Shown piece by piece: positions 2,054 through 20,973 of a DNA stretch of 24,849 nucleotides. The stretch's first letter is position 1. Every line of letters starts with the position of its first letter. Both the position numbers and the translations under genes were made by a program. Origin of the DNA: a virus; the IMG/VR virus record IMGVR_UViG_3300035698_012504, positions 250,694 through 275,542 of that record; one strand, 5' to 3'. The notes below the pieces were generated by a model. The model saw only the letters and a list, made by a program, of their open reading frames with translations, was not told the DNA's origin and did not search any database.

Positions 2054-2446
2054 CTACTCCTTACTATTATAAACATCAGGGTCAAGATCTCTATTCCTAA
2101 GAATAGAAAAAATTATTTTCGGTATTGATGTGAGTTCCAGTTTAGGTACAAATATATCGACTACTTCAAACCCTTCTACATCCATATTAGGAACATCGTT
2201 ACCACTCATTAAAATTCCTACAGTAGTTGGGCTAAATCTTTTAATCTCCCTAATAAAATCTACACCATTCATTCCAGGCATTCTAAAATCTGAAATTACA
2301 ATATCATAAAACGGATGTAGAAGTGTTTCCCTTGGATCAGTTTTTACTTCTATTTCAATATTCTTCATGCTGCTCTCTAAGATATCAACAGCCAAATCTC
2401 TGATCATTTCATCATCGTCTATTAACAGAATCACTATTTTTTCCAT
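2054..2446 (-). CDS. Stand-alone response-regulator receiver domain (CheY-like), with no output domain
   Basis: It has 'ILLIDDDEMIRD' (the acidic pair), 'DIVISDFRMPGMNG' (the phospho-acceptor Asp), 'VGILMSGN' (the conserved Ser/Thr) and 'FVPKL' (the conserved Lys). The protein is 130 aa. A GGAG ribosome-binding site lies upstream at 2453-2458, read on the minus strand. Confidence 0.8.
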   Translation of the reverse strand: MEKIVILLIDDDEMIRDLAVDILESSMKNIEIEVKTDPRETLLHPFYDIVISDFRMPGMNGVDFIREIKRFSPTTVGILMSGNDVPNMDVEGFEVVDIFVPKLELTSIPKIIFSILRNRDLDPDVYNSKE

Positions 2447-2467: not shown

Positions 2468-2493
2468 AGAAAAAAAAGGCATTGTGCCTTTTA
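2468..2493 (-). terminator. Rho-independent terminator between the Ro60 gene and the receiver gene
   Basis: Read on the minus strand the sequence is 'AAGGCA-caa-TGCCTT' followed by 7-8 T residues. The stem is 6 bp with a 3-nt loop. It starts immediately at the TAA stop of the Ro60 gene. Because it is flanked by an A-run upstream and a T-run downstream, it could act in both directions. Confidence 0.6.
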
Positions 2494-4110
2494 CGATTGC
2501 TGTGTTTCTATTTGGTTAGAAATGTCGATCATTTTTCTTGCGAACATCAGAACGCTGTGGCTCCAACCTCCAAGAATAAATGTTCTTCTGTAATACTCTG
2601 GAATTATTGTATCCTGATACCCAGCTGTCTGGACTAGGAATACATTAATATTAGGATTCACTTTTGTTCTATATCTATTTACAAGTTTGGGGACATCTAT
2701 ATATTGACCTGAGTTCGGGAATATGAAATCAGAGTAGGACGATTTATCTGATCCATACAATCCACCATGACCAGCTTGCATATCGGAATACACAAACAAG
2801 TTATCATAATGAATTTCCTTCTGAGTTATTTCATCTAAGGCCAACCAGATGCCATGCTCAGTACCGTGACCTATGCTCACGCCAATCTTATTAACTTCTT
2901 TTAGTTGATCAAATACAGAACTTCTTTTTCTTACATCATGGTATTTTAATCTATCCCCAAATACACCAATGACTCCTTCATCGGAAATCATTCCGGTAAG
3001 TATACCCATCATGTTTCCAATCTCCGCAACTGTTACTGATGAGTATTCTCCCGGTCCTGAGTCATAAGCACTACCAGAGTTATCGGTGAGTATTAGAGAT
3101 TTACCTGGAAGCTGAGGAAGCTCAGGCATTGATTTCATTAGACTATCTTCAAGTGCATCTAATATCTTAGCAGAACCAGTTGGATGTGCATTCTTTACTG
3201 CCATATATGCTGTCCAGTATCTAAATGGTAATAACATTCCACGTTCAGCAGATTTAGTCATCTTATCAACAATTAGATCCTGATCCACATCAGCAGTAAT
3301 TAAATTTCTAAGATTTTTAACTATTGCAAAGTGTCCCATAACGCCTAGACACTTATCCCAAGACTCACCTTTGGATCTTAATGCTTCCCAAGTTTCGTCA
3401 TTGAGTTTAAGTTCACCGCCTACTAAAGCACGGATATCATCGTTCCATTGAAAGTCAATCATATTAATAACATCAACAGTTTTGACTTCTCTTGATTCCA
3501 TTCTATATTTAGCAAGTTCATATTTCTTAGCTATTAGAAATCTATCTGCCCAAGATCTCTTAAGACTATTGGGTACAGGTTTTCCAAATGCTTTTAACTG
3601 ATATGCTAATTGAGTAGCTGGCTCGTCCATTCTCCTGAGAATTGAAGGAGCATACTTTCTTATTAGGCCAGTGCCTTTTACTTTTAAATGATTTGCAGCT
3701 CTTACCATTATTACTTGAGGAGTAACTCTTATCTTGTCTTCATTTCTAAGTGCAGCTGCAATATAAAGAGTTCCTTCTGGATCGAATGCTAATGCTTCAT
3801 CAATTGCTCGTTCCATCAATTCAGTTGGCTTAAGACTTCTCCAATCATATTTATCTATTGCATCTAAACTTTCTCTTAAATATTTTATTTGGGTGTCTGA
3901 TAATGTGGATGATTTTCTTGCTTCATCAAAACTTTTCTTTTTTCCAGAACCAGAGGAAGTGTAATACTTCGGTTCTCCAAAGAAACATGACGCAGCCATT
4001 GCTCTTAATCTTACTAGTGGAGTAATGTCAAAACTTGTTCCAGCCATAAAATTTTTGTGGGAATCTTTTCTCACTGCCGTCGACTTGGTCTTGTTAATCG
4101 TTGCCATCAA
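2491..4110 (-). CDS. rsr: Ro60/Rsr orthologue: TROVE domain plus von Willebrand A domain
   Basis: The length (539 aa) is close to human Ro60 (538 aa) and Deinococcus Rsr. 'RAMAASCFFGEPKYYTS' matches Ro60 'RFLCFGSEGGTYYI'. The vWA MIDAS motif 'LILTDNSGSA' lies near residue 335, matching Ro60 'LLAVDVSASM' near residue 375. The later vWA segments 'IGHGTEHG' and 'VFLVQTAG' correspond to 'PAGGTDCS' and 'VFIVFTDNET'. The start codon is TTG or ATG at 4110 or 4107, with an AAAGGA ribosome-binding site. Confidence 0.8.
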   Translation of the reverse strand: MMATINKTKSTAVRKDSHKNFMAGTSFDITPLVRLRAMAASCFFGEPKYYTSSGSGKKKSFDEARKSSTLSDTQIKYLRESLDAIDKYDWRSLKPTELMERAIDEALAFDPEGTLYIAAALRNEDKIRVTPQVIMVRAANHLKVKGTGLIRKYAPSILRRMDEPATQLAYQLKAFGKPVPNSLKRSWADRFLIAKKYELAKYRMESREVKTVDVINMIDFQWNDDIRALVGGELKLNDETWEALRSKGESWDKCLGVMGHFAIVKNLRNLITADVDQDLIVDKMTKSAERGMLLPFRYWTAYMAVKNAHPTGSAKILDALEDSLMKSMPELPQLPGKSLILTDNSGSAYDSGPGEYSSVTVAEIGNMMGILTGMISDEGVIGVFGDRLKYHDVRKRSSVFDQLKEVNKIGVSIGHGTEHGIWLALDEITQKEIHYDNLFVYSDMQAGHGGLYGSDKSSYSDFIFPNSGQYIDVPKLVNRYRTKVNPNINVFLVQTAGYQDTIIPEYYRRTFILGGWSHSVLMFARKMIDISNQIETQQS

Positions 4111-4565
4111 ACTATCCTTTCACGTCACTTCGGATCCACGGACCCGAACTTTAAAAATGGGGAGAATATCGCAAGGGCGATTTTTTCGCTTTTGATCCTT
4201 ATTCAAATGAAGTAACCCTTACATTCACTACCCCGAAAAATATATAAATAATATAAATTTAAGAAAAAACAGGAAAAGCTCGATCTGGTGTTGGTCTTCG
4301 CTGGCGCTCACTAGCCGATGGCTAGCAGCGTTCCAGCTCCATGAAGTAACCAAATCAATCACTACCTGTAAAAATCAACGCGAGATAAATAGCGACAGAG
4401 TATATGTTTCATTTTAAAGAAGTAACTCTATCTTTCACTACTCGCTAAAAACATTGGGAAAAAATCAACTAGGTGTTTGTTTCATTTAAAGGTGAAGTAA
4501 CCCAGTCATTCACTACCCAAAAAAAGATAAATCATCGTTCTCACTATTTAATATATATAGTATAT
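4111..4565. ncRNA. 455-bp non-coding locus with four direct repeats and a GC-rich hairpin; candidate structured RNA or RNAs, possibly Y-RNA-like, with strand unresolved
   Basis: No ORF of 60 aa or more is present. Four copies of the motif GAAGTAAC-N(6-8)-TCACTAC(C)-N(3-5)-AAAAA begin at 4209, 4343, 4419 and 4494. A roughly 60% GC imperfect hairpin sits at 4300-4337 in otherwise AT-rich DNA. The region lies directly upstream of the Ro60/TROVE gene. Read on the minus strand each repeat is TTTTT..GGTAGTGAAT..GGTTACTTCA. Confidence 0.4.
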
Positions 4566-5867
4566 CTAAACCTGGTAAACCCATTCATCATCTTCGAAAA
4601 TATTTTTTGTATCTATTATAATATCTGAGTATTCTTTTATAATACTATAATCCACATTATCATGATCAACTGCAATTATTACAGCATCAGATCGTTTACA
4701 TATTGTCTTGAGATCTTCTGATTCAAAACTATAATGTTTATCTACATAAGGATCATGATAAGTAATGTTAGCCCTTCTGAAAAGCAACTGTTCCAATATA
4801 GCAGTGCCGGTAGAGTTTCTAACGTCTCCCACATTCTTTTTGTAAGCCAATCCAATAATAGCAATGTTAGCTCCTTTCACAGGTTTGTCCGCAGAATCTA
4901 AAATCCATTTAATCTTGTCTATTAAAATATCTAATGATTTTTTATTGACGCCTGTACATGCGTCTATGATGGGGGTATCGACCCCATGTTTATTCGATTC
5001 ATATTTAAAATAATATGGATCTACTCCTATACATTCTCCGCCTATAGATGCAGTTGGATAGAATGGAGAAAATCCAAATGGTTTTGTACTTGCCAATTCT
5101 ATCACTTCTTTTAAACTAATTTCCATTTGATCGCAGAATTGTTTGACTTCATTCATAAAAGATATGTTTACAAATCTATACATATTTTCTAATAGCTTTG
5201 TTAGTTCTGCTACATGAGTTCCTGAAGCTTCTACTACTTCATCTACAATATTTAAATATAGTGCTTTTGCAATAGCAGTCGAAACTGGATCAACTCCCCC
5301 AACAATCTTTGGAGTATTTTCTAAAGTATATAATTTATTTCCTGGGTCTACTCGTTCAGGACTAAATGCAACATATCCTTCGAATCCTCTAGATCTTGTT
5401 GGGTTTAACTTGTCATCTTTAAAACGCCAGAAGTTTTTGTTTGTAAACCCAGGATACACTGTACTTTCTAATACAATTAAAAAATCAGACTTCCCATAAC
5501 TTACAATGTTATTATGAATAGTGTCAATCAATATTTCTAAGTTCTTTACTTCTGGTTTATTATTAATGGTTGGGGTTGGAACACATATGATTATACAATC
5601 ACAATCTACTAAGATTTTTTTCGGAGGCTTTTCCCAACATGTAAATAATTCCACACCGTGATTTAAAATATCTAGTTCTTCATCACTTATATAACTTATA
5701 TCACACTTACCCGATTTAAGTTTTTTAATCTTTCTTTCATCTACATCAAATCCCCTGACTCTGAATCCTGCCTTTGCGAATTTAAGGGCCAACGGCAAAC
5801 CTACGTAGCCAAGTCCAATTATACCAATTTTAGCTTTCTTGGTTTCTATTTTTTCTAATAATTCCAT
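4566..5867 (-). CDS. Nucleotide-sugar dehydrogenase (UDP-glucose/GDP-mannose dehydrogenase family, WbpA/WecC-like UDP-N-acetyl-hexosamine dehydrogenase)
   Basis: It has an N-terminal Rossmann motif 'KIGIIGLGYVGLPLA'. The catalytic-cysteine motif 'IGGECIGVDPYYF' matches the 'GGHCIPVDPYY' of the WbpA/WecC branch. The C-terminal domain contains 'IIGLAYKKNVGDVRNS'. The protein is 433 aa. Confidence 0.85.
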   Translation of the reverse strand: MELLEKIETKKAKIGIIGLGYVGLPLALKFAKAGFRVRGFDVDERKIKKLKSGKCDISYISDEELDILNHGVELFTCWEKPPKKILVDCDCIIICVPTPTINNKPEVKNLEILIDTIHNNIVSYGKSDFLIVLESTVYPGFTNKNFWRFKDDKLNPTRSRGFEGYVAFSPERVDPGNKLYTLENTPKIVGGVDPVSTAIAKALYLNIVDEVVEASGTHVAELTKLLENMYRFVNISFMNEVKQFCDQMEISLKEVIELASTKPFGFSPFYPTASIGGECIGVDPYYFKYESNKHGVDTPIIDACTGVNKKSLDILIDKIKWILDSADKPVKGANIAIIGLAYKKNVGDVRNSTGTAILEQLLFRRANITYHDPYVDKHYSFESEDLKTICKRSDAVIIAVDHDNVDYSIIKEYSDIIIDTKNIFEDDEWVYQV

Positions 5868-6243: not shown

Positions 6244-7710
6244 TTATGCACCAGTATCGGAATCTGTAATGGTTAGTGCAGCCAATCCTTCAGGTCTTAT
6301 TACCTTAACCGCATAACGACTTAGGATTGTAAGTGATGGATTGTTACCAAGAGGATAAGGAATTAAGAGTGCTGGTACGTAAGGGGCATACACGCAAACC
6401 GCTTTCATCATTTCTGGGCTTCTGTGTTTCATAATTACTGTACCCTGAGGAACAATACTAGAAACAAGAATCTTCCATTTACCTGAAGATACTGTAGCTG
6501 AACGGTATCCGACATCTCCACCGGCAACACTATCGCCAACATATTCGAAGCCGTTAAGGGATTCAAATACTGCTGCATCAAGTGGGTTACATGCTAATGT
6601 ATTAGCAGGACCGATAAGAGAGGTGTTATACACCTGTGCGGAAAGCTTATTCAGTGTTGGAATAATATTTTCATACCATGCCTTACGACCCCATGTGAAT
6701 CCAGTTGGAGGATTCAGATCAAATGAGTCAGTATGGCTAGATGGGTTGTTGGAACTATTAGCAGTAATAAGCGTACTAATTAGTTGGTTATCAATGTCAA
6801 GAGCAATCTGCTCACCTATGATATTTACAAGCTCACTTTGAAGCTTAATATCATAAAGAGCCTGAATGTCTTGTTCCATATTCACTGTCCATTCTGCAGA
6901 GATTCGTCTGTCTACGACTTTGAATCTTATCTTTTCAACGTCGAACTTGACAGTCGGGTTAATTGTGTTTTCTTCTAGAGACGCATATCCCTGGAAGCCT
7001 ATTTCAGCTACTTCGCCTGTCGCTGAACTCCAGGTCAGTAGACCGTTTAAGTAATCAACATGACCACTTACGGTATCTGGACCTGCATTTGTGGTAACGT
7101 CAAAAGAGAAATTACCGTCGACATCGGCTTGCCAATCAACGGCAACGTATCCACCAGTTTGATCATAAATACCGGTGATTTTGAAATCTTTTTCAAGGTG
7201 TGAGTCAGTGCTATCCAGTGAGACCTCAGCTAGCACATCGTGATTTTGACCCTCAGTTGCTGTAGCAGCTACGCTGATACCAATAGAAGGACCACGAGAG
7301 ATATCTGTGGAGGTTGAAGGGAATGCATGATCATAGCCACTATCAACGTGACGTTTGAATGAAGGTCTTATAAATCCTTTGATTACATCGGGCTTATCAA
7401 TAGGCATTACATTAACTAATTCTTTCGCGACTAGTTTCGGATAGAATACGCGAAGTATAGGTAGTGTCATTGTCTCATATGGATTCAGTTGGAACATGCT
7501 GTTTTCCATCAGGTTTAGACGAGTATTCTCGGCTAATTGACTGAAGTCATCAGCTTGGTCCGTAGGTAGACCTTCGGCTAGGTTCTTTGCATAGTACTTA
7601 AAGCTCTCTGGGCTTGCAAGCATCTGACGGAAACCTTGAGGCGAACGTACGTCTAGACCAGTGTTGCGTTTTGTAGCATTATATGTTTCTTGTAGTAAAT
7701 GTTGCATCAT
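6244..7710 (-). CDS. Major capsid protein, T4 gp23-like
   Basis: 'VCVYAPYVPAL' matches T4 gp23 'GIYYAPYVALT'. 'AEWTVNMEQDIQALYDIKLQSELVNIIGEQIALDIDNQLI' matches gp23 'AAYSIELAQDLRAVHGMDADAELSGILATEIMLEINREVV'. The C-terminal 'VKVIRPEG' matches 'RRVYVKGI'. The protein is 488 aa. Confidence 0.8.
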   Translation of the reverse strand: MMQHLLQETYNATKRNTGLDVRSPQGFRQMLASPESFKYYAKNLAEGLPTDQADDFSQLAENTRLNLMENSMFQLNPYETMTLPILRVFYPKLVAKELVNVMPIDKPDVIKGFIRPSFKRHVDSGYDHAFPSTSTDISRGPSIGISVAATATEGQNHDVLAEVSLDSTDSHLEKDFKITGIYDQTGGYVAVDWQADVDGNFSFDVTTNAGPDTVSGHVDYLNGLLTWSSATGEVAEIGFQGYASLEENTINPTVKFDVEKIRFKVVDRRISAEWTVNMEQDIQALYDIKLQSELVNIIGEQIALDIDNQLISTLITANSSNNPSSHTDSFDLNPPTGFTWGRKAWYENIIPTLNKLSAQVYNTSLIGPANTLACNPLDAAVFESLNGFEYVGDSVAGGDVGYRSATVSSGKWKILVSSIVPQGTVIMKHRSPEMMKAVCVYAPYVPALLIPYPLGNNPSLTILSRYAVKVIRPEGLAALTITDSDTGA

Positions 7711-8466: not shown

Positions 8467-9885
8467 CTATGAGATACTAGGAGTATATGCTAATCTAAAT
8501 CCTGTTAAAGACCCGATTGAGGCGTCTGTTCTAACCAAACGTAAATTAAAGAACCCAGTCTCATTTCTAGGTATCTTCCAATATCCTCCTCTTGTAGGCC
8601 TGATCGACCCTCTATAAACACTAGTATGGCCATAACTATGTCCATTTAAATCTCTACACCAAGAAGGATCAATTAAAGCTTGTTGTAATAAATATTTATC
8701 TGATTGTGGGACATTACTATCATCATCATATGCTGCCGTAGTTGGCATATCTGTCCATTCACATCGTTTACTACCATTTATAGTATATAAATTTGAAGAA
8801 ACATCTAATTGTGGAGTATATGCTCCGCCTTTATTATATGCCGCAGAAGATATTATGTCTGTTCCAGCAGCGGCAGAAATAGTAGATGTTTTATTATATC
8901 TTGGTATAAATAATTGCCCATTATTAACAGCAAACCCGTTAATCCATTCTTCTTTATTTCCAATTGCATCTGCTATACCTGTAACTTCTCCATTATGTGT
9001 CCAACTTAATGGGCCACTACCAGTGTAGGTTGTACCATCTCCAGATTCTGTTCCAGGTACTAATCCATCAACTCTTACTCCTGACTGATAATTATAATTT
9101 GGACTTATATTATCACCGGCGAAATTTGGATCATATCTTCCATACCATGTATTTCCACCTGGATTATGTCCAGAAGCTAGACCATCAAATACCATAGCTG
9201 ACCATTCCCAATTCGTCATCATATGCCATCCAACTCCTTTATTAGAAGCTGCCGCAGCGGAATCTAAATAAGAAATTCCTGAAGTAGGATTGAATCCAGG
9301 CATAGAGAAATAAGAATTTCCTTCTGATGCAGATATAAACTGACCTATAAATATTTCATCATGGTAATCAAAAGTACCATCTGATGCTTTATATTTAAAT
9401 GCAGGGTGATAACCACTACCACAATAATTAGTAGACTTAATTAAATATTCCTGATTGGGATAAGAGGTAAATGTTCCCTCGTCTATCCCTTGTATTGCTA
9501 AATCTATCAGGTATACATAATCATCAGTTACTGAATCTACCTGATACCTATTCGGAGTTGGCATCACAGAGTAAAGAGTATTTGTAGCACCTACTGATGG
9601 TTCGGGAGGAACATAATGAACATAATCTCCCTCCTCTATTGGACGAATACCATCTGATTTAATTCTATTATCTATTTGGAAATTAATTATTCCTAATGGA
9701 TGTATTTCATCGGCATAATAATCAAGGATAGGTATTTTGTTAAAATTTTTATCCTCTACTTCAAATCTATTCAATATATACATATATGACGGCACACCAT
9801 TGGTGTCATATAAAACTGTTATCTTACCACCAGTCAATGATTCGACTGAAGATCTTAATCCATCTTTTACAAAAATATTAGGCAT
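8467..9885 (-). CDS. Paralogue A of a duplicated structural or carbohydrate-binding protein carrying FGE/SUMF1-like (C-type-lectin-fold) signature motifs
   Basis: It shares many blocks with ORF 9916..11415: 'TVLYD..G.PS.MY', 'GYHPAFKYK' with 'GIHPAFICG', 'EIFIGQF' with 'EIFVGQF', 'GWHMMTNWEWSAMVF' with 'GWHAMNLWEWSAIAF', and 'YTGSGPLSWTHNGEVTGIADAIGNKEEWINGF' with 'YTGSGPKSFRHNNDFTGISDIVSPNGEFIGGIF'. The 'T.NWEWSA' and 'GNKEEW' blocks resemble the FGE motifs 'PTEAEWEYAA' and 'GNVWEW'. Confidence 0.55.
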   Translation of the reverse strand: MPNIFVKDGLRSSVESLTGGKITVLYDTNGVPSYMYILNRFEVEDKNFNKIPILDYYADEIHPLGIINFQIDNRIKSDGIRPIEEGDYVHYVPPEPSVGATNTLYSVMPTPNRYQVDSVTDDYVYLIDLAIQGIDEGTFTSYPNQEYLIKSTNYCGSGYHPAFKYKASDGTFDYHDEIFIGQFISASEGNSYFSMPGFNPTSGISYLDSAAAASNKGVGWHMMTNWEWSAMVFDGLASGHNPGGNTWYGRYDPNFAGDNISPNYNYQSGVRVDGLVPGTESGDGTTYTGSGPLSWTHNGEVTGIADAIGNKEEWINGFAVNNGQLFIPRYNKTSTISAAAGTDIISSAAYNKGGAYTPQLDVSSNLYTINGSKRCEWTDMPTTAAYDDDSNVPQSDKYLLQQALIDPSWCRDLNGHSYGHTSVYRGSIRPTRGGYWKIPRNETGFFNLRLVRTDASIGSLTGFRLAYTPSIS

Positions 9886-9915: not shown

Positions 9916-11415
9916 TTACGGTATAAATGCAACTCGTGGTGCTTCCAAATTGTCATATTTTCTTACATTAAATCCAAAAGGCCCACCAACATTATCCGCA
10001 GTTCCAGAACCGGTAGATGAATCTCCTACACCTCTTTGCATGAAGTAAAAGGTTGAATCGCCTGCTGCTGTAGCTAGTTCGTCGGATGGGAATCCGCCAG
10101 TAATAACTGCTTCTTTTGCTGTTTGATTTGCAGTCGATACAGCTCTCCATATACCTCCACTAGCCATTAAGGAAAGTCTCATAAGTCTAACTAAATCATC
10201 ATAATTAGAATCTGCTAATGATTCTGCATGAAAATCAAGCGTTGAACTAGGAGGATATTGGTTCCATGAACTTGAATGAGCCAATCCACTATAGTCGGAT
10301 GCCAACCCATCAGATGTTCCTATTATATCACAGATCCCACCAGCAGATGGTTCTTTAAATGATAACCATCCATTTCCACCACCACCAACCCCATCCTGAG
10401 TCCACTCTAATGTATTGGCTGCACTAGTAATTCCATATTTTCTTTCGGCTTCAAAACTATTAAAAGAATTAAATCGAATCTGTCCAGAGTGAATAAAAAT
10501 CCCACCTATAAACTCTCCGTTTGGAGACACGATATCAGAGATTCCGGTAAAATCATTATTATGACGGAAACTTTTTGGACCAGATCCTGTATAGTAATCA
10601 TTTGATGTAAGATTATATGCTGGGGTTACAGTCTCATATGGGTAACTCGCATTTGGACTTCTAACCGATCTATCTATACCCAAATATCTATTATCTCCAT
10701 AATCATATGAAGATGATGTACCTATACCTCTAACAGTTGTTTCATTTGATAAAATTTGAAAAGCAATTGCTGACCATTCCCACAGATTCATAGCATGCCA
10801 ACCAGGACCTTTTACAATCATTGACTGTCTTATATAATCATAATCATATCCAACTTGATCCTGTACAAGTGTACGTGGAAGAGAATGAAAAGTATTATTG
10901 ATTATAGACGATCTAAACTGTCCTACAAATATTTCTGATTTATATCCAGGGCTATATGTCTCGTGGGGACCACATATAAATGCTGGATGGATTCCATGAC
11001 CCATTAATCCCTGTATCCACATTCCAGTCTCATTTATATCACCCCATGCGATTGCTGCTACTGGATTTGTCTGAATTCTAAATGTATTAACATCTGGTAC
11101 AGAACTAACTACAACATCTTGACCATGCCAATCTGATGATGGTCTTTCCCCGACTATTGTTATTACATCGCCAGCGGTTAATCCATGAGCAGTATATACT
11201 ATTTCTCTAGTATTAACATCAGGACTACCACTAGCGGTGACACTTGTAAATGGTATATACATCGCAGTAGGATCGACTGATATAATATCAAATCTAGGGA
11301 TTACATACATTTGAGAAGGTATTCCTGCTGCATCATATAAAACTGTATTTTGTCCACCACTAGCACCTTCTACTGCTAATCTATATGGATCTTTAATTAA
11401 AATATTAAAGCTCAT
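9916..11415 (-). CDS. Paralogue B of the same family as 8467..9885
   Basis: See paralogue A. This copy is 499 aa and has a Gly-rich insert ('VGGGGNGW'). It overlaps the upstream gene by 11 nt. Confidence 0.55.
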   Translation of the reverse strand: MSFNILIKDPYRLAVEGASGGQNTVLYDAAGIPSQMYVIPRFDIISVDPTAMYIPFTSVTASGSPDVNTREIVYTAHGLTAGDVITIVGERPSSDWHGQDVVVSSVPDVNTFRIQTNPVAAIAWGDINETGMWIQGLMGHGIHPAFICGPHETYSPGYKSEIFVGQFRSSIINNTFHSLPRTLVQDQVGYDYDYIRQSMIVKGPGWHAMNLWEWSAIAFQILSNETTVRGIGTSSSYDYGDNRYLGIDRSVRSPNASYPYETVTPAYNLTSNDYYTGSGPKSFRHNNDFTGISDIVSPNGEFIGGIFIHSGQIRFNSFNSFEAERKYGITSAANTLEWTQDGVGGGGNGWLSFKEPSAGGICDIIGTSDGLASDYSGLAHSSSWNQYPPSSTLDFHAESLADSNYDDLVRLMRLSLMASGGIWRAVSTANQTAKEAVITGGFPSDELATAAGDSTFYFMQRGVGDSSTGSGTADNVGGPFGFNVRKYDNLEAPRVAFIP

Positions 11416-15002: not shown

Positions 15003-15893
15003 TTACATAACTCCTTCTAATTTTAAAGAATTAATATATTTTAAAAATTCTTCTTGCTTATATTTACCACTTTTTTTCTTATTATCCATCTCAGTTAAAA
15101 ATTGTAAATTACTTTCACCATTTATAATATCTAAATCATAAATGTTATTTTCAACAAATGCTTTTATTGGAAAAATATGATCAATATGAATTTTTAAATT
15201 ATTTATATTATATTTCTTTCTGAATTTTCTTTTATATGATGAACTTAAAGAATGAATTCTTTTAATCGACCTTATTTTACTTCTATCTGGATTCCAATTA
15301 GAACTGTTTTCTCCGGAAAGTTTATCTATTTTACAATAAATACATCGTTGGCCCCTTTTAAAATTACTAAAAGTAATTTTTGATGTATTTCCGCAATTGC
15401 ACTTATATTTTAAAGGAATTTCACATGTAATATATTTATCTAATAAAACACAATCTCTTTCTTTAAAATAACTATTCACCTCTTCTTGAGAGTATCTATG
15501 ACTATTCGCTCTTCGTTTTATTCCACATTTTTTACATCTACTTCCTTCCTTAAAACGACCAAGAACTGTACTAGAAATATTTCCACAAACACACCTATAC
15601 TTTACAGGACTATTATTATTCTTATATTTGTCCAGTAATTTACATCCTTCTTTTTTAAATATATATTCAACCTCTTTTTGAGAATGTTTCTTTTTACTAG
15701 ATCTTTTCTTTATTCCACAGCTCATACATCGCTTACCTTCTCTAAAATGATAAAGAGAAATCTTAGACTCATTCCCACAAATACATCTATACTTCATAGG
15801 AATATCACAATTATTATATTCTTCTGCTAAAAGTTCACAACCTTCCTTCTTAAATATTTCTCTAACTGTTTCTAACGTATATTTCCTATTCAT
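15003..15893 (-). CDS. Free-standing HNH endonuclease with three tandem zinc-ribbon repeats (homing-endonuclease-like)
   Basis: It contains three repeats of about 48 aa of the form 'F.KEGC.LL..Y.N...P.KY.C.CGN.S......F..G.RC..CG'. The C-terminal HNH core is 'KIHIDHIFPIKAF...NGESNLQFL'. An AGGAAAT ribosome-binding site is present. The gene is inserted between the prohead protease gene and the structural genes. Confidence 0.7.
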   Translation of the reverse strand: MNRKYTLETVREIFKKEGCELLAEEYNNCDIPMKYRCICGNESKISLYHFREGKRCMSCGIKKRSSKKKHSQKEVEYIFKKEGCKLLDKYKNNNSPVKYRCVCGNISSTVLGRFKEGSRCKKCGIKRRANSHRYSQEEVNSYFKERDCVLLDKYITCEIPLKYKCNCGNTSKITFSNFKRGQRCIYCKIDKLSGENSSNWNPDRSKIRSIKRIHSLSSSYKRKFRKKYNINNLKIHIDHIFPIKAFVENNIYDLDIINGESNLQFLTEMDNKKKSGKYKQEEFLKYINSLKLEGVM

Positions 15894-15943: not shown

Positions 15944-16639
15944 TTATAAACTATACTTATTTTTTAAATCTTTCATTCGTGTCTCTACTAGTTTATCATA
16001 CTGATTTGGAATCATGCACACGCCATTTTTAAGGCACACTAACCCACCCTTTTCGGAAACACATTCCATTAATCCAACAGATTCATGAATTGTTCTTGTA
16101 ACTGTTTCAGTTATTTTAATCATTCTAGCTGAGTCATGACTTGGATAACTTACGGAGTCCCAAGTTACTACATGTAAAGGATGTTGAACTTCATATACAA
16201 CATCACTACCTTCATTTATTTGTTTTACATCTCCCATTCCACGGAAACTAAATCCGACAGGAACGCCATCTTCGGCAAGATTTTTTAAGATGTAACCATT
16301 AGGAGTTCTTAATGTTTCTATAGTCGCCATTAATTTATTTGAACTCCAACCAGTCTCTAAGATTCTATGAGAACAGTCTTTATATAATACTGTTACTTGT
16401 CTAACTGGGTTCTGATCTATTGGGTGATCTAGCTCTCCAATAAAAGATCCTTCTTGTACTCTCTTCTTAATAGAGTTCAGACCTTCATCCAATAAAGCTC
16501 TACTATACTTTCTTTTATTTCTATTTATCTCATCACACGTTTGAAGGATGCACTCCATTCTAACTCTACCATTTTTATCGGTAGATTTTAGTTTGGTTGG
16601 GACAGATACTACGCTTGGTGATTCTGCGATTATAAACAT
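15944..16639 (-). CDS. Prohead core protease, T4 gp21-like (peptidase U9)
   Basis: 'EINRNKRKYSRALLDEG...GELDHP' matches T4 gp21 'VVNRNKRLYPKRILEKA...GELNHP'. 'GVPVGFSFRGMG' matches 'GWIPGVSSRGLG', the catalytic Ser region. 'VVTWDSVSYPSHDSA' matches 'VDAVWGPSAPDAWV'. The protein is 231 aa. Confidence 0.8.
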   Translation of the reverse strand: MFIIAESPSVVSVPTKLKSTDKNGRVRMECILQTCDEINRNKRKYSRALLDEGLNSIKKRVQEGSFIGELDHPIDQNPVRQVTVLYKDCSHRILETGWSSNKLMATIETLRTPNGYILKNLAEDGVPVGFSFRGMGDVKQINEGSDVVYEVQHPLHVVTWDSVSYPSHDSARMIKITETVTRTIHESVGLMECVSEKGGLVCLKNGVCMIPNQYDKLVETRMKDLKNKYSL

Positions 16640-17682: not shown

Positions 17683-20600
17683 TTAAAATCCACCGCCACC
17701 ACCCATGCCACCAGGTGCTTCCTCGCCTTCATCTTTACCTTCAATCTTATCTTGAAGCTTCTGAGCTCTCTCAAATTTATCAATTTCTTCCCAAGGAAGG
17801 TTAAGATATTTCTTACATAACCATTCTTTATTAACTCCAAGTTCTTCTAATATTTGAACAATAGATTGTATTTGTTGAAAGTGCTCACCTTCCCGTTCTA
17901 TTTGAAGTAGCTTAGGAGGTGAAAATGTAACTAAAATTCCTACTGGTAATTTTTCATTTCTTATATATTTATATAATTTAGAGAACAAGCTCATTATATT
18001 TCGTGTAAGCATTTGTTGATACGCTACAATAGTTCTGGCAAATACATCATTTTCATGTGCAAGTGCAGCTTTATTACTATTATGAATAAATATACCAGCC
18101 GAAACTGCAAAGTTATGGTATGTCTCTACTCTGATATCACCACAATCGATTTTATATGATAATTTTTCAACTTTAACTACTTTATGGTTTAATATCAGTT
18201 CTTTTACTTCTCTCTTTCTAGTAAATATTTCACTTCTCTGTTGTGCTGTAGAAACTGCCCGATACTTATTTAAACAATTAGGATTATAACAAATAGTCTT
18301 ATATTGTTTTTCTTCCCAAGTGCCAAATCTTGAAGCCTCGGTGTAAACATAAAGATTTTCACATACTTCACAATATCTATATTCTATATTAGACCATAGA
18401 CGTCCTTTAAGTTTAGTCATTGATATGTTAGCTTTTCTAACCATCTTAGCACAATAATTATCATCGCAATTATACCATTTATATGGTTGCTCTTCTAATT
18501 GTTTCTTTAATTTTTTTGTTAACGTCTTAGTAAATTGCTTGCCACAATGAGAACATGACATAGTTATTTCTGGAAACTTTTTATCATAATCAATTTTACG
18601 AGAATCCCATGATAAACGACCTGTTTGTTGATGTCTTATTTTTCTACAAGCAGACGAACACGTCGTTTGAACTGTATCAGATCTATTAGTAAATGTTTTA
18701 CCACATATTTCACACGTTCTTTCCTCATATGAAGTACCAGGTACAGACAGTTCGAATAATTTTTTACGATTTTCTTGTAATTTTGTAAGTTCTTCTTTTG
18801 AAAATAACTTTGTACGGGCATGTAATGCAAGATGATCTCCAGCGGATAAACCCACTAAATTTTTAGTAGAATTGTTCAATGGATTCATATCTATATGATG
18901 ACAATGCTCATTACTAACAGCCATCTTTGTATAATGACTAAATGATCTATGCATCCAATCCCAAACATCTATTCCCGGATGATAAACATAATTATATTTA
19001 GTAGCTTTTTCTTTATTTCTACTTTTAATATAAGGTTTCATTTTCTTATAAAACGGCATTAAAGAATCACCTGGTTGTAAAGAACCAGCTTCAACATATT
19101 CACCACTTCTTTTCATCATTTTATGTTCAGGAGTAATTATTAAAAATTCACCATTATCTAATGTTATCTTAACAGCATCTACATCAAATTGAGTATATCC
19201 GGCCCATGTGACTTTATTCGGAAATACAACCCCCAAATCTTCATCATAAGAAATAACTTCAAATTCTTCACCTTTTTCAAATCTATCTATCATTTCTTTA
19301 AGGAGGATTTTCTTTCCATTAGTCAATTCGATGTAAGTCGTTGATACACAAGAAGATAGATTCTCCTCGAGGTTCATATATGCGGGAGGCACGTCTAAAC
19401 TAGACACTAACATATCCCTGAAAAACTTTAATTCATCTGTAACATCTCTGATGTTAGTTGGTGATTCTATTCTATCAAACTGAATTGCAGGTTCACCACC
19501 CCTTGGTCTTGGTATATAATATTCTTCATAAGATGTTATCATTGAAGGTATTGAAGAAATATTTCCCCAACTATCCACACTATGCTTTCTCTTCTTAGTC
19601 TTCTCTTGGAAGTCGGCAATAATATTTCTTACTTGTCTATCGGGAGAGGCATCAACGATAATCATCCTTTTATCACTAGAGTCAGATACTCTCTTAATAG
19701 TAACAGCTACTTCTAATGCTATCAATAACTTAGCCTGCCACATTGATTTGTAGAATATACTTTCTCCGTATGGGAAGAATCTCTTATTATAAATACAAAA
19801 ATGCTCCATCCGTTCAGGCGGAACATATCTTACTATTAACTTCTGATCATCTGTATTTTTTATCTCAGCCATTGCTCTGTTAATCAAAGTAACTAATTCT
19901 TTCTTATCTACTTTAGCATCCTTGGCAACATTTACACGACCTATATACTTAGAGACTGCTTTCATTATTTCTGCATATACTTTTTCTACTCCCGATAGAT
20001 TAGTATTTCTTGGATCATATCCAGTAATTTTCTTATTTAGATTCTGATTTGTTTTCATGGTCGCCCCAGACGAACTATTACTATTAATAGGAATAACTAA
20101 ATATCCTAAACACATTTTAAATCGTCTGGATTGTATCTTTATAACAGCTCTAGAATCGTGTACTATTAGTTTAATCTCTTCTAAAGCAGATTCTAGATTT
20201 GGTTTATCACTTGTAGGATTATCTTCATCTTTTTTCTTTTTTCTTACAGCTTCATCTATTACTACAACTGGCTCTATAGTTTTAGTATAGGCTTCACCAT
20301 TTTCATTAAGATATTCTATGTCTACTGATTCTAGAGTCATAACAGCATCTTCTGGCAATCCTTGCCTATCTGCTTCTGTAAGAATAACTTGAGTAACTGG
20401 TACCTCTTTAGATTTGTAACTAGCAAATTCTACGAACTGATCTCCGTACGATAAAGTATTACTTATTATATCATGTATCTCACCTTCTAAACCTAGATGG
20501 TCAGATATTGCTCTTATATCGCCTATTTTACTTTTATCTTTTTCTGATAGATCTTTTCCTCCAGTGATGTTGATGACCTCTTTCGAAACATCATCGGGGG

Positions 20601-20973
20601 ATAGGATACCATCTGTAATAACTTTTAATGCTCTAGAACAATAAGGTATATTGTCAACTATCTCATCTGCGTTATTATATCTCCAATATCTACCTTGTAG
20701 TTCTTCTGAATCTACTAGTTCTTGTGTTAAATCTCCAAGTGTCTTTTTGGCCCAGCTCTCATCTCCACCAACATCCATAGATTTAATAATAGAATTTTTA
20801 ATAACTTCGGCATATTTAAATGAATGTTTATCCACTATAGTATCTGATATTTTATCTAGTACATCATCGACATTATCTAGTTCCTTCTTGGTTGTTGTAC
20901 CAATTATCTTGGACACTATTTTGTCAAATGAGGACTGAATAGGATCAGATACTTTATTTTTCTTTTTTGCCAT
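17683..20973 (-). CDS. Portal protein, T4 gp20-like, interrupted in frame by a 424-aa intein
   Basis: The exteins match T4 gp20. 'AKLLIALEVAVTIKRVSDSSDKRMIIVDA' aligns with '[26 protein letters not shown]'. 'YEEYYIPRPRGGEPAIQFDRIESPTNIRDVTDELKFFRDML' aligns with '[43 protein letters not shown]'. Once the intein (residues 542-965) is removed, the mature portal would be about 672 aa. The C-terminus is 'GGMGGGGGF'. Confidence 0.8.
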   Translation of the reverse strand: MAKKKNKVSDPIQSSFDKIVSKIIGTTTKKELDNVDDVLDKISDTIVDKHSFKYAEVIKNSIIKSMDVGGDESWAKKTLGDLTQELVDSEELQGRYWRYNNADEIVDNIPYCSRALKVITDGILSPDDVSKEVINITGGKDLSEKDKSKIGDIRAISDHLGLEGEIHDIISNTLSYGDQFVEFASYKSKEVPVTQVILTEADRQGLPEDAVMTLESVDIEYLNENGEAYTKTIEPVVVIDEAVRKKKKDEDNPTSDKPNLESALEEIKLIVHDSRAVIKIQSRRFKMCLGYLVIPINSNSSSGATMKTNQNLNKKITGYDPRNTNLSGVEKVYAEIMKAVSKYIGRVNVAKDAKVDKKELVTLINRAMAEIKNTDDQKLIVRYVPPERMEHFCIYNKRFFPYGESIFYKSMWQAKLLIALEVAVTIKRVSDSSDKRMIIVDASPDRQVRNIIADFQEKTKKRKHSVDSWGNISSIPSMITSYEEYYIPRPRGGEPAIQFDRIESPTNIRDVTDELKFFRDMLVSSLDVPPAYMNLEENLSSCVSTTYIELTNGKKILLKEMIDRFEKGEEFEVISYDEDLGVVFPNKVTWAGYTQFDVDAVKITLDNGEFLIITPEHKMMKRSGEYVEAGSLQPGDSLMPFYKKMKPYIKSRNKEKATKYNYVYHPGIDVWDWMHRSFSHYTKMAVSNEHCHHIDMNPLNNSTKNLVGLSAGDHLALHARTKLFSKEELTKLQENRKKLFELSVPGTSYEERTCEICGKTFTNRSDTVQTTCSSACRKIRHQQTGRLSWDSRKIDYDKKFPEITMSCSHCGKQFTKTLTKKLKKQLEEQPYKWYNCDDNYCAKMVRKANISMTKLKGRLWSNIEYRYCEVCENLYVYTEASRFGTWEEKQYKTICYNPNCLNKYRAVSTAQQRSEIFTRKREVKELILNHKVVKVEKLSYKIDCGDIRVETYHNFAVSAGIFIHNSNKAALAHENDVFARTIVAYQQMLTRNIMSLFSKLYKYIRNEKLPVGILVTFSPPKLLQIEREGEHFQQIQSIVQILEELGVNKEWLCKKYLNLPWEEIDKFERAQKLQDKIEGKDEGEEAPGGMGGGGGF
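18079..19350 (-). mobile_element. Intein (Hint domain plus HNH homing-endonuclease domain plus Cys-rich zinc-ribbon motifs) inserted in the portal gene
   Basis: The intein begins with Cys ('NLSS|CVSTTYIELTNGKK', block A) and ends 'FAVSAGIFIHN|S', which is the block-G His-Asn followed by a +1 Ser on the C-extein. The internal HNH motif is 'EHCHHIDMNPLNNSTKNLVGL...DHLALH'. Several CxxC pairs are present ('CEICGKTF...CSSAC', 'CSHCGKQF', 'CEVCENLY...CYNPNC'). I verified the nucleotide boundaries by hand: TGT at 19350-19348 and AAT at 18081-18079. Confidence 0.7.

Follow-up and report, generated by a model that had tools for sequence, protein, structure and literature searches.

Particles made of the Ro60 protein and its Y RNAs are conserved from bacteria to humans, in whom they are a major autoantigen, and what is known of their roles in bacteria, and especially in phages, comes from a handful of systems. 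The present analysis concerns a stretch of 24,849 nt from the virus record IMGVR_UViG_3300035698_012504 (positions 250,694-275,542), called here the window and numbered from its first letter as position 1. It contains an open reading frame (ORF) for a TROVE-domain protein, preceded by a non-coding spacer with four structured repeats. A phage Ro60 with nearby Y-like RNAs is an already known type of system. The locus is likely to be such a cassette, i.e., a phage ribonucleoprotein (RNP) cassette of the Ro60/Rsr type comprising one gene for a ring-shaped TROVE plus vWA/MIDAS protein and four tandem Y-RNA-like genes on the same strand, presumably acting on host RNA.

The phiRo60 protein of Thermus phage phiLo, with its RNAs Yrl1 and Yrl2, has been characterised by structure (PDB 9kop, 9l5y) and biochemistry (Hu et al. 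2025, PMC12135203). In this phage, K141/K142 have been validated for Y-RNA binding, and the C8U change in the CGAA motif lowers affinity about threefold (PMC12135203). As far as the same paper's account goes, which cites Chen et al. 2014, Y RNA-like non-coding RNAs and a Ro60 homologue are also found in Bacillus phage G (PMC12135203). Chen et al. 2014 (PMC4201824) describe bacterial Y RNAs as encoded near rsr on the same strand, 80-130 nt in length and built of a long terminal stem with an internal loop. Their 5' motif GNCGAA(N)G is thought to contact Rsr, at least one Y RNA with a tRNA-like module is found per species, and a second, hairpin-type Y RNA (YrlB/Yrn2), of a kind that has "eluded bioinformatic discovery", is frequent (PMC4201824). 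In Mycobacterium smegmatis, a single precursor is processed into YrlA and YrlB, both of which are encoded upstream of rsr (PMC4201824).

In the window, the TROVE protein is encoded by a single unbroken ORF at 2491..4110, which an earlier note on this DNA had reported without its strand (minus). Counted from the TTG at 4110 the product has 539 amino acids. The ATG at 4107, preceded by an AAAGGA Shine-Dalgarno sequence, appears from the sequence to be the likelier start, and the resulting 538-residue product is identical to a metagenomic database protein (P0001) found on a 152-kb contig. The protein matches phrog_850, "RNA-binding protein", at 2.4e-38, and the only match of a single-sequence search is the phiLo "TROVE domain-containing protein" (6e-11, alignment over residues 99-389). 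Pfam TROVE is matched by 56 of 59 homologues (50-57% identity), the best at 4e-18, and Pfam VWA by none of the 59. An NCBIfam scan of the window TROVE protein gave no match, nor did PADLOC for the TROVE, receiver, Zn-ribbon or cytidylyltransferase proteins. With a profile of the clade, phiLo Ro60 is found at 7.5e-29, human Ro60 at 7e-5, Xenopus Ro60 at 2e-3 and Deinococcus Rsr at 1.2e-2.

These profile alignments place DNSGS, T416 and D442 on the MIDAS residues of Ro60/Rsr (DVSAS, T and D in human; DVSGS in Rsr), and D342, S344, S346, T416 and D442 are invariant in the 59 homologues. An alpha/beta fold is predicted for the C-terminal half, with vWA domains as the next-best fold matches of a structure search. 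Global superposition of the predicted structure implies a ring, and structural alignments to canonical Ro60/Rsr keep the HEAT ring over its full length at 12-15% identity. The domain order and the equivalent MIDAS position that the earlier note had read from the letters are thus borne out by the Ro60/Rsr alignments, as is its expectation that a structure prediction would recover both the HEAT ring and the vWA fold and superpose on Ro60/Rsr, albeit at low identity. Its pairing of CFFGEPKYY with the Ro60 block CFGSEGGTYY has to be given up: no Ro60 alignment recovers it, hhalign of the clade profile against human Ro60 (sequence verified for residues 204-477) leaves the N-terminal block unaligned, and CFFGEPKYY aligns weakly with SLFLGDNTYY of phiLo. 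The block itself (residues 41-49, nt 3961-3987), inside the TROVE ring region, is like DNSGS (residues 342-346) invariant or nearly so in the 59 homologues, FFGEPxYY being invariant. Also inside the ring region is LKRSW (residues 182-186, nt 3550-3564), whose K183/R184 align with K141/K142 of phiLo.

On this sequence and modelling evidence, the window protein is a predicted Ro60/Rsr-type TROVE plus vWA/MIDAS protein with an intact MIDAS. The earlier note had called it a Ro60/Rsr orthologue; the type stands, but strict orthology to Rsr is not claimed, since phiRo60 of phiLo is a much nearer relative of the clade than either canonical Rsr or Ro60 is. Judged from sequence, it is best described as a member of a distinct TROVE subfamily common to Myxococcota, Chloroflexota and large phages.

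The spacer upstream of the gene (4111-4565, 455 nt) had been described in the earlier note as a repeat-rich non-coding locus, which is real and resolves into four structured-RNA units. The pattern GTAGTGA-N8-GTTACTTC occurs exactly four times in the window, always in the spacer and on the gene's strand (0.03 expected by chance). The units, 72-107 nt long and 47-416 nt upstream of the TROVE gene on the same strand, share one plan: an outer helix of 4-5 bp, an internal loop, an inner helix of 7-8 bp, UACUUCA and a variable apical part, with a U-run after the unit. The 5' side of the internal loop is UAGUGAWW, read in the window units as (G)UAGUGAAUG, UAGUGAAAG and UAGUGAUUG, and its 3' side is rich in U and, in most homologues, terminates in UCU. 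The helix sequences vary among the four units with their complementarity kept, and each unit folds alone, by minimum free energy (MFE), into the shared architecture (z -1.5 to -5.2).

Support for the two helices comes from an alignment, made with MAFFT, of the raw genomic intervals of 25 short homologous units. Without manual parsing, RNAalifold recovered exactly two helices, with compensatory double changes in 11 of the 12 pairs. Paired cells amount to 86.7%; shuffling the columns lowers this to 60.6%, and sliding the partner by 1-3 columns to 42-51%. Double-change cells number 87, where 32.6 are expected, and the covariation score is 0.707 vs. 0.24; none of 500 shuffles reached the observed value. 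Phylogeny is not modelled in these controls, the slide control, in which relatedness is kept, being equally clear. A hand-made anchored helix scan, in which 43 of 57 units had at least 11 of the 12 pairs and shuffles gave 13-27, was dropped as too permissive. The stem of the four units, two helices with a conserved internal loop, thus shows evolutionary covariation. The covariance model built from the alignment (R1) finds unit 1 at 63.9 bits (E 9e-14), unit 2 at 61.2 bits (E 4e-13; MFE z -2.6) and unit 4 at 61.3 bits (E 4e-13), and the MFE folds of units 1 and 4 show the same architecture. Unit 3, which is absent from the seed, is found at 41 bits (E 3e-8) despite an insert of 30-40 nt; its MFE is -42.5 kcal/mol (z -5.2), and it gives no YrlA or tRNA match. 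A fifth match at 5059-5115 (minus strand; 16.1 bits, E 0.04) is weak and lies within the UDP-glucose dehydrogenase coding sequence, and was treated as chance.

At more than 100 loci, phage and bacterial, the same RNA accompanies this TROVE subfamily. At E<=0.01, R1 gives 72 matches in 82 phage loci and 63 in 80 bacterial loci, and all 135 are on the strand of the TROVE gene, most of them directly upstream of it (162 related loci). Beside the related IMG/VR genes, 2-5 units are likewise present on the same strand, mostly within 650 nt upstream, and their copy number ranges from 1 to 5 across relatives. Among the bacterial loci are those of complete Sorangium chromosomes, Nannocystis, Polyangiales, Chloroflexota and a Deinococcus species, with proteins 47-54% identical to that of the window; the subfamily is therefore not phage-specific. 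Concerning the assignment of hosts, one metagenome-assembled genome (MAG) locus, "Melioribacteraceae" L258, and the IMG/VR locus L027 are both on contigs 177,804 bp long, with identical TROVE statistics and identical R1 scores at offset coordinates, which implies that some "cellular" MAG matches may be mis-binned large phages. The complete Sorangium chromosomes are unaffected by such mis-binning.

The earlier note had regarded phage TROVE genes as a rarity, which is an overstatement given that relatives of the protein are present in 92 phage records of GenBank and in no fewer than 139 stretches of IMG/VR. The survey of synteny that it had proposed showed that the RNA units recur beside the gene in relatives, but none of the other genes flanking it in the window recurs in the 82 related phage loci, so that only the RNA travels with the TROVE gene. 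Among the relatives from large phages, several have the gene and its Y-like RNAs set within arrays of 10-25 tRNA genes and close to a phage tmRNA (L016 at 2875-3215; many sites in L016, L017 and L037; L200, i.e., Bacillus phage G, at 8638-8946).

The loop motif follows the protein. Where the protein is at least 43% identical to that of the window, AGUGA is present in 51 of 63 phage and 75 of 95 bacterial same-strand motif matches; in the clade of 35-40% identity, which includes Bacillus phage G, AGCGG is present in 75 of 92 phage and 8 of 10 bacterial ones. UACUUCA and UUCUC are common to both clades. A loop motif that switches with the protein clade behaves as would be expected of a recognition element. 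Compared with the Y RNA motif, GUGA(A) replaces NCGA(A) through one transition (C-to-U), a resemblance rather than an identity. As the C8U change in CGAA weakens binding in phiLo, the AGUGA-clade protein is suggested to have co-adapted.

In their location, strand, size and stem-loop-stem architecture, the window units agree with Y RNAs, and they have the form of a Y RNA in the broad sense: 72-107 nt, with both helices backed by covariation and by single-sequence folds. Some relatives have longer units that enclose a T-arm followed by a D-arm, tRNA-like modules being found in 9 of 65 relatives' units. Rfam YrlA matches these long units with 41.5 bits (E 1.8e-7) over the tRNA-like core and with 34.4 bits (E 2e-5) over the full model with its stems; neither reaches the gathering score of 69. 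Through these partial matches the RNA family is tied to YrlA-type Y RNAs.

The complex of Rsr, Y RNA and PNPase in Deinococcus and Salmonella offers an analogy for the tethering of an exoribonuclease. A weak sigma-70-like promoter candidate at 4579-4550 precedes unit 1 by about 25 nt, and the units may therefore share one transcript with the gene. The RNAs would probably be co-transcribed with the gene from a single promoter ahead of them and then undergo processing, or termination at the U-runs, a parallel to the YrlA/YrlB precursor of M. smegmatis. Following Xenopus Ro60, Deinococcus/Salmonella Rsr and phiLo phiRo60, the protein would bind the stem and internal loop of each RNA on its outer basic surface, with AGUGA as the clade's putative counterpart of the CGAA/GNCGAA contact, and the variable apical parts could act as gates of the ring or as tethers to host partners. 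The most plausible partner would be a host 3'-5' exoribonuclease such as PNPase, a best guess drawn from the Deinococcus/Salmonella complexes and from phiLo phiRo60-Yrl-PNPase. An infecting phage could in this way divert or damp the host pathways of structured-RNA decay and quality control, and with four RNAs that differ in their apical modules, several RNP species would be possible.

A number of observations weigh against this reading. Regarding the protein, the earlier note had proposed a Pfam TROVE and VWA search as a check and taken the lack of a significant TROVE match as reason to drop the claim. On that count the claim fails, as TROVE reaches 18.5 bits, below its gathering score of 23 and over residues 234-315 only, and VWA does not match the window protein at all. 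Only 2 of the 7 mapped RNA-contact residues of phiLo align to basic residues, R137, R163, R169, R173 and R178 being without a basic counterpart in the alignment. Regarding the RNA, Rfam YrlA has no match in 4050-4620 even at E<=10, and the spacer searched against Rfam at E<=10 gives chance-level matches only (RUF20, mir-329) and no family. None of the four units contains a tRNA-like module (T-arm plus D-arm) or the literal GNCGAA/CGAA motif, and the MFE z values of units 1 and 4 are unremarkable (-1.5 and -1.6). At the gathering thresholds, Rfam had no match in the whole window, and ARAGORN found no tRNA or tmRNA genes in it. Regarding the mechanism, no PNPase, RtcB or other obvious partner gene is found in the window, PNPase attenuation by phiLo phiRo60-Yrl was obtained in vitro only (PMC12135203), and it is from distant relatives that the effector and any advantage to the phage are extrapolated. 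Despite the weak curated models, the protein is assigned to the Ro60/Rsr type because three independent lines, including family context and sequence-to-structure links, point to it. With three YrlA features lacking in the window, the four upstream units are filed as Y-RNA-like, YrlB-like variants rather than as members of YrlA.

Other explanations of the locus are conceivable. That the repeats are non-functional or selfish DNA, such as degenerate tRNA-derived repeats, a miniature inverted-repeat or REP-like element or iterons, with coincidental proximity to the TROVE gene, would fit their being tandem, AT-rich, intergenic and similar in size. It is scarcely credible in view of the compensatory base changes in both helices, the single strand shared by all R1 matches, a linkage that holds across phyla, in phages and bacteria with otherwise unrelated flanking genes, and a motif that co-varies with the protein clade. 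Another possibility, which is very improbable, is that the Ro60 fold has been repurposed as a MIDAS-dependent protein-protein adaptor or chaperone with no RNA-ring function. The low identity to canonical Ro60/Rsr in structural alignments, the lack of conservation of most phiLo RNA-contact residues and the position of the most strongly conserved blocks (SDMQAGHGG, DNSGS) in the vWA/MIDAS half could be read in this way; however, the gene is in tight linkage with a structured RNA that co-evolves with it, the basic pair of LKRxW is conserved, and the HEAT ring is retained over its full length.

The units could also be cis-acting elements of the TROVE mRNA leader, i.e., attenuators, terminators or autoregulatory protein-binding sites, as all four are found 5' of the coding sequence and a U-run closes each of them. 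In addition, a further AAGUGA in the leader overlaps the 3' end of the 8-bp hairpin (4125-4148), and of 27 close phage loci, 8 have AGUGA between the Shine-Dalgarno sequence and the ATG, against an expectation of about 2. Yet units are downstream of the gene or about 3 kb away in some relatives (L012 at 5629-5790, L002 at 8599-8911, L025 and L035), their copy number varies from locus to locus, and some hold whole tRNA-like modules homologous to YrlA, a stable trans-acting RNA. A purely leader-based function is accordingly considered decidedly unlikely, and cis-leader and trans-acting roles of the units are not mutually exclusive. The leader AGUGA may, from its sequence, be an autoregulatory mimic of the Y-RNA loop. 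AGUGA just upstream of TROVE start codons is also seen at L002, L016, L017, L026, L035 and L037. Alternatively, rather than tethering or inhibiting PNPase, the Ro60-like RNP could be a repair or quality-control platform for tRNAs and rRNA that host anticodon nucleases or toxins have damaged. This would suit the position of the gene and RNAs within large tRNA arrays with tmRNA (L016, L017, L037, Bacillus phage G) and the mimicry of tRNA by some relatives' units, and a review of jumbo phages counts TROVE (ROT/TROVE plus a tRNA-like partner) among RNA-repair systems (PMC7824862). The idea is unlikely, though still to be reckoned with, as the window contains no tRNA gene, tRNA-like unit or gene for an RNA ligase, kinase or cyclase, and the only experimental phage data point to PNPase.

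Beyond the cassette that acts on host RNA, it may tentatively be proposed, with more doubt than confidence, that the short AGUGA/AGCGG RNAs and the TROVE subfamily form a distinct Ro60-like RNP lineage in Myxococcota, Chloroflexota, other bacteria and many large phages. Its recognition code would have diverged from CGAA while co-evolving with the protein, phage arrays would retarget one ring to several host effectors, and the leader mimic might autoregulate the gene.

The coordinates of the features are collected in Table 1.

Table 1. Features of the TROVE locus and its surroundings (positions in the window)
Feature	Position	Strand	Remarks
Ro60/Rsr-like TROVE + vWA coding sequence	2491..4107	minus	538 aa; stop codon 2491-2493; mechanical ORF from TTG 4110; phrog_850; structure matches
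Predicted TROVE all-alpha HEAT-repeat ring region	3118..4026	minus	~residues 28-330; secondary structure of model, sub-threshold Pfam TROVE, phiLo alignment
Predicted C-terminal vWA domain, Rossmann-like alpha/beta	2494..3117	minus	~residues 331-538
MIDAS motif D342-N-S344-G-S346	3070..3084	minus	completed by T416 (2860-2862) and D442 (2782-2784)
TROVE 5' leader	4111..4153	minus	8-bp hairpin 4129-4148; extra AAGUGA 4125-4130; AAAGGA Shine-Dalgarno 4115-4120
Y-RNA-like unit 4	4154..4238	minus	outer GGGG/CCCC; inner UAAGGGU/GCCCUUG; 3' loop ...AUUCU
Y-RNA-like unit 3	4266..4372	minus	outer ACAGG/CCUGU; inner AUUUGGU/ACCAGAU; GC-rich long-hairpin apical insert, not tRNA-like
Y-RNA-like unit 2	4377..4448	minus	outer GCGAG/CUCGC; inner AUAGAGU/ACUCUGU
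Y-RNA-like unit 1	4450..4523	minus	outer UUGGG/CCCAA; loop UAGUGAAUG; inner ACUGGGU/ACCUAGU; UACUUCA; short apical loop; U-run
Sigma-70-like promoter candidate	4550..4579	minus	promoter scan, consensus match only: TTTACC/TTACCA, 17-18 nt spacer, TATATT, 9/12
RNase H + DEDDh RNase T/DnaQ-like exonuclease fusion	225-1298	minus	357 aa; RNase H 1.2e-32, exonuclease 3.2e-11
Cytidylyltransferase-like protein	1291-1779	minus	flanks TROVE cassette
UDP-glucose/GDP-mannose dehydrogenase	4566-5867	minus	flanks TROVE cassette
gp23-family capsid protein	6244-7710		Pfam Gp23 8e-26
Adjacent paralogues, phrog_2889	8467-9885, 9916-11415	minus	4e-51, 3e-32; between capsid and portal regions; phrog function not assigned in PHROG
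Free-standing HNH endonuclease	15003-15893	minus	phrog_559, 3.5e-24; adjoins prohead protease gene
Prohead protease	15944-16639		phrog_207 5e-30
gp20-type portal	17683-20973	minus	1096 aa; Pfam Portal_T4 1.7e-12

Regarding the surroundings of the cassette, the receiver-domain flank reported in the earlier note is real. It is a stand-alone CheY-like ORF (2054-2446, minus strand, 130 aa, Pfam Response_reg 1.7e-13) with no output domain, 44 nt downstream of the TROVE gene. A receiver domain is also found in the other contig of the same phage (L001) and in none of the 82 related TROVE loci, and this neighbour is incidental. The fusion of RNase H and exonuclease, the only nuclease near the TROVE locus, is more likely to be replication-related than a partner of Ro60. 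A functional link of the TROVE gene to the receiver domain or to this fusion was rejected, as neither recurs in the 82 phage loci. The two flanking sugar-nucleotide genes may be auxiliary, serving surface-polysaccharide or DNA-modification chemistry.

The head genes had led the earlier note to speak of a T4-like neighbourhood. This holds at the Pfam level for gp23 and gp20 and for the protease, but close kinship with T4 or the Straboviridae does not follow: in 50,697 phage records the capsid protein is best matched by the jumbo phages LPJP1, AR9 and PBS1 at 23-25% identity, with T4-type phages lower. The portal gene is interrupted by an intein (Intein_splicing 1.4e-16, residues 551-965) bearing an HNH homing-endonuclease segment (phrog_15471). 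The free-standing HNH gene lies in the kilobase of lowest GC content in the window (25% vs. ~34%) and is probably a mobile homing endonuclease.

Among the known systems, vertebrate Ro60 (PDB 1yvp, 2i91, 9nen) has the domain order and MIDAS position of the window protein, and vertebrates and the window locus both have several distinct Y or Y-like RNAs per genome with a terminal stem, an internal loop and a U-rich 3' end. However, identity in structural alignments is 11-13%, and the window units lack the helix by which Y RNAs are recognised (GGUCCGA, with a bulged C). Bacterial Rsr with YrlA/YrlB or Yrn1/Yrn2 (Deinococcus radiodurans, Salmonella Typhimurium, M. smegmatis; Rfam RF02553) shows marginal similarity at the protein level (E 0.012), and the window differs from it in having no literal GNCGAA, tRNA-like module, Rfam YrlA match, nearby rtcBA or other repair genes. 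The phiLo phiRo60 is ~20% identical to the window protein, in which most of its other validated contacts are not conserved; phiLo has two RNAs with CGAA whereas the window locus has four with AGUGA, and dimerisation and PNPase binding are described for phiLo. The closest named phage homologue is gp540 of Bacillus phage G ("putative TROVE domain ribonucleoprotein"), 39% identical over the full length, with the same RNA architecture ~240 nt upstream of its gene (R1 39.4 bits). Phage G RNAs carry AAGCGG in the loop where the window units carry AGUGA, and its gene is among tRNA genes and a tmRNA in a genome of 498 kb with structural genes unrelated to those of the window.

With regard to these systems, there is nothing new in phages carrying Ro60; what the locus brings to light is a large, easily recognised subfamily at more than 100 loci. 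Three features appear to be undescribed in the searchable literature, namely the short AGUGA/AGCGG-type RNA family, which is absent from Rfam, the clade-specific co-variation of its loop motif with the protein, and the array of four tRNA-less copies. With the R1 model, short YrlB-like Y RNAs are found that had escaped both Rfam and earlier homology searches, and the four tRNA-less Y-like RNAs, seen in the window only, question the rule of one tRNA-mimic Y RNA per Ro60 genome. As the protein and its short RNA co-vary in the presumptive contact motif (CGAA, GUGA, GCGG), these phages and bacteria offer a natural specificity-swap series for the way in which Ro60 reads Y RNAs.

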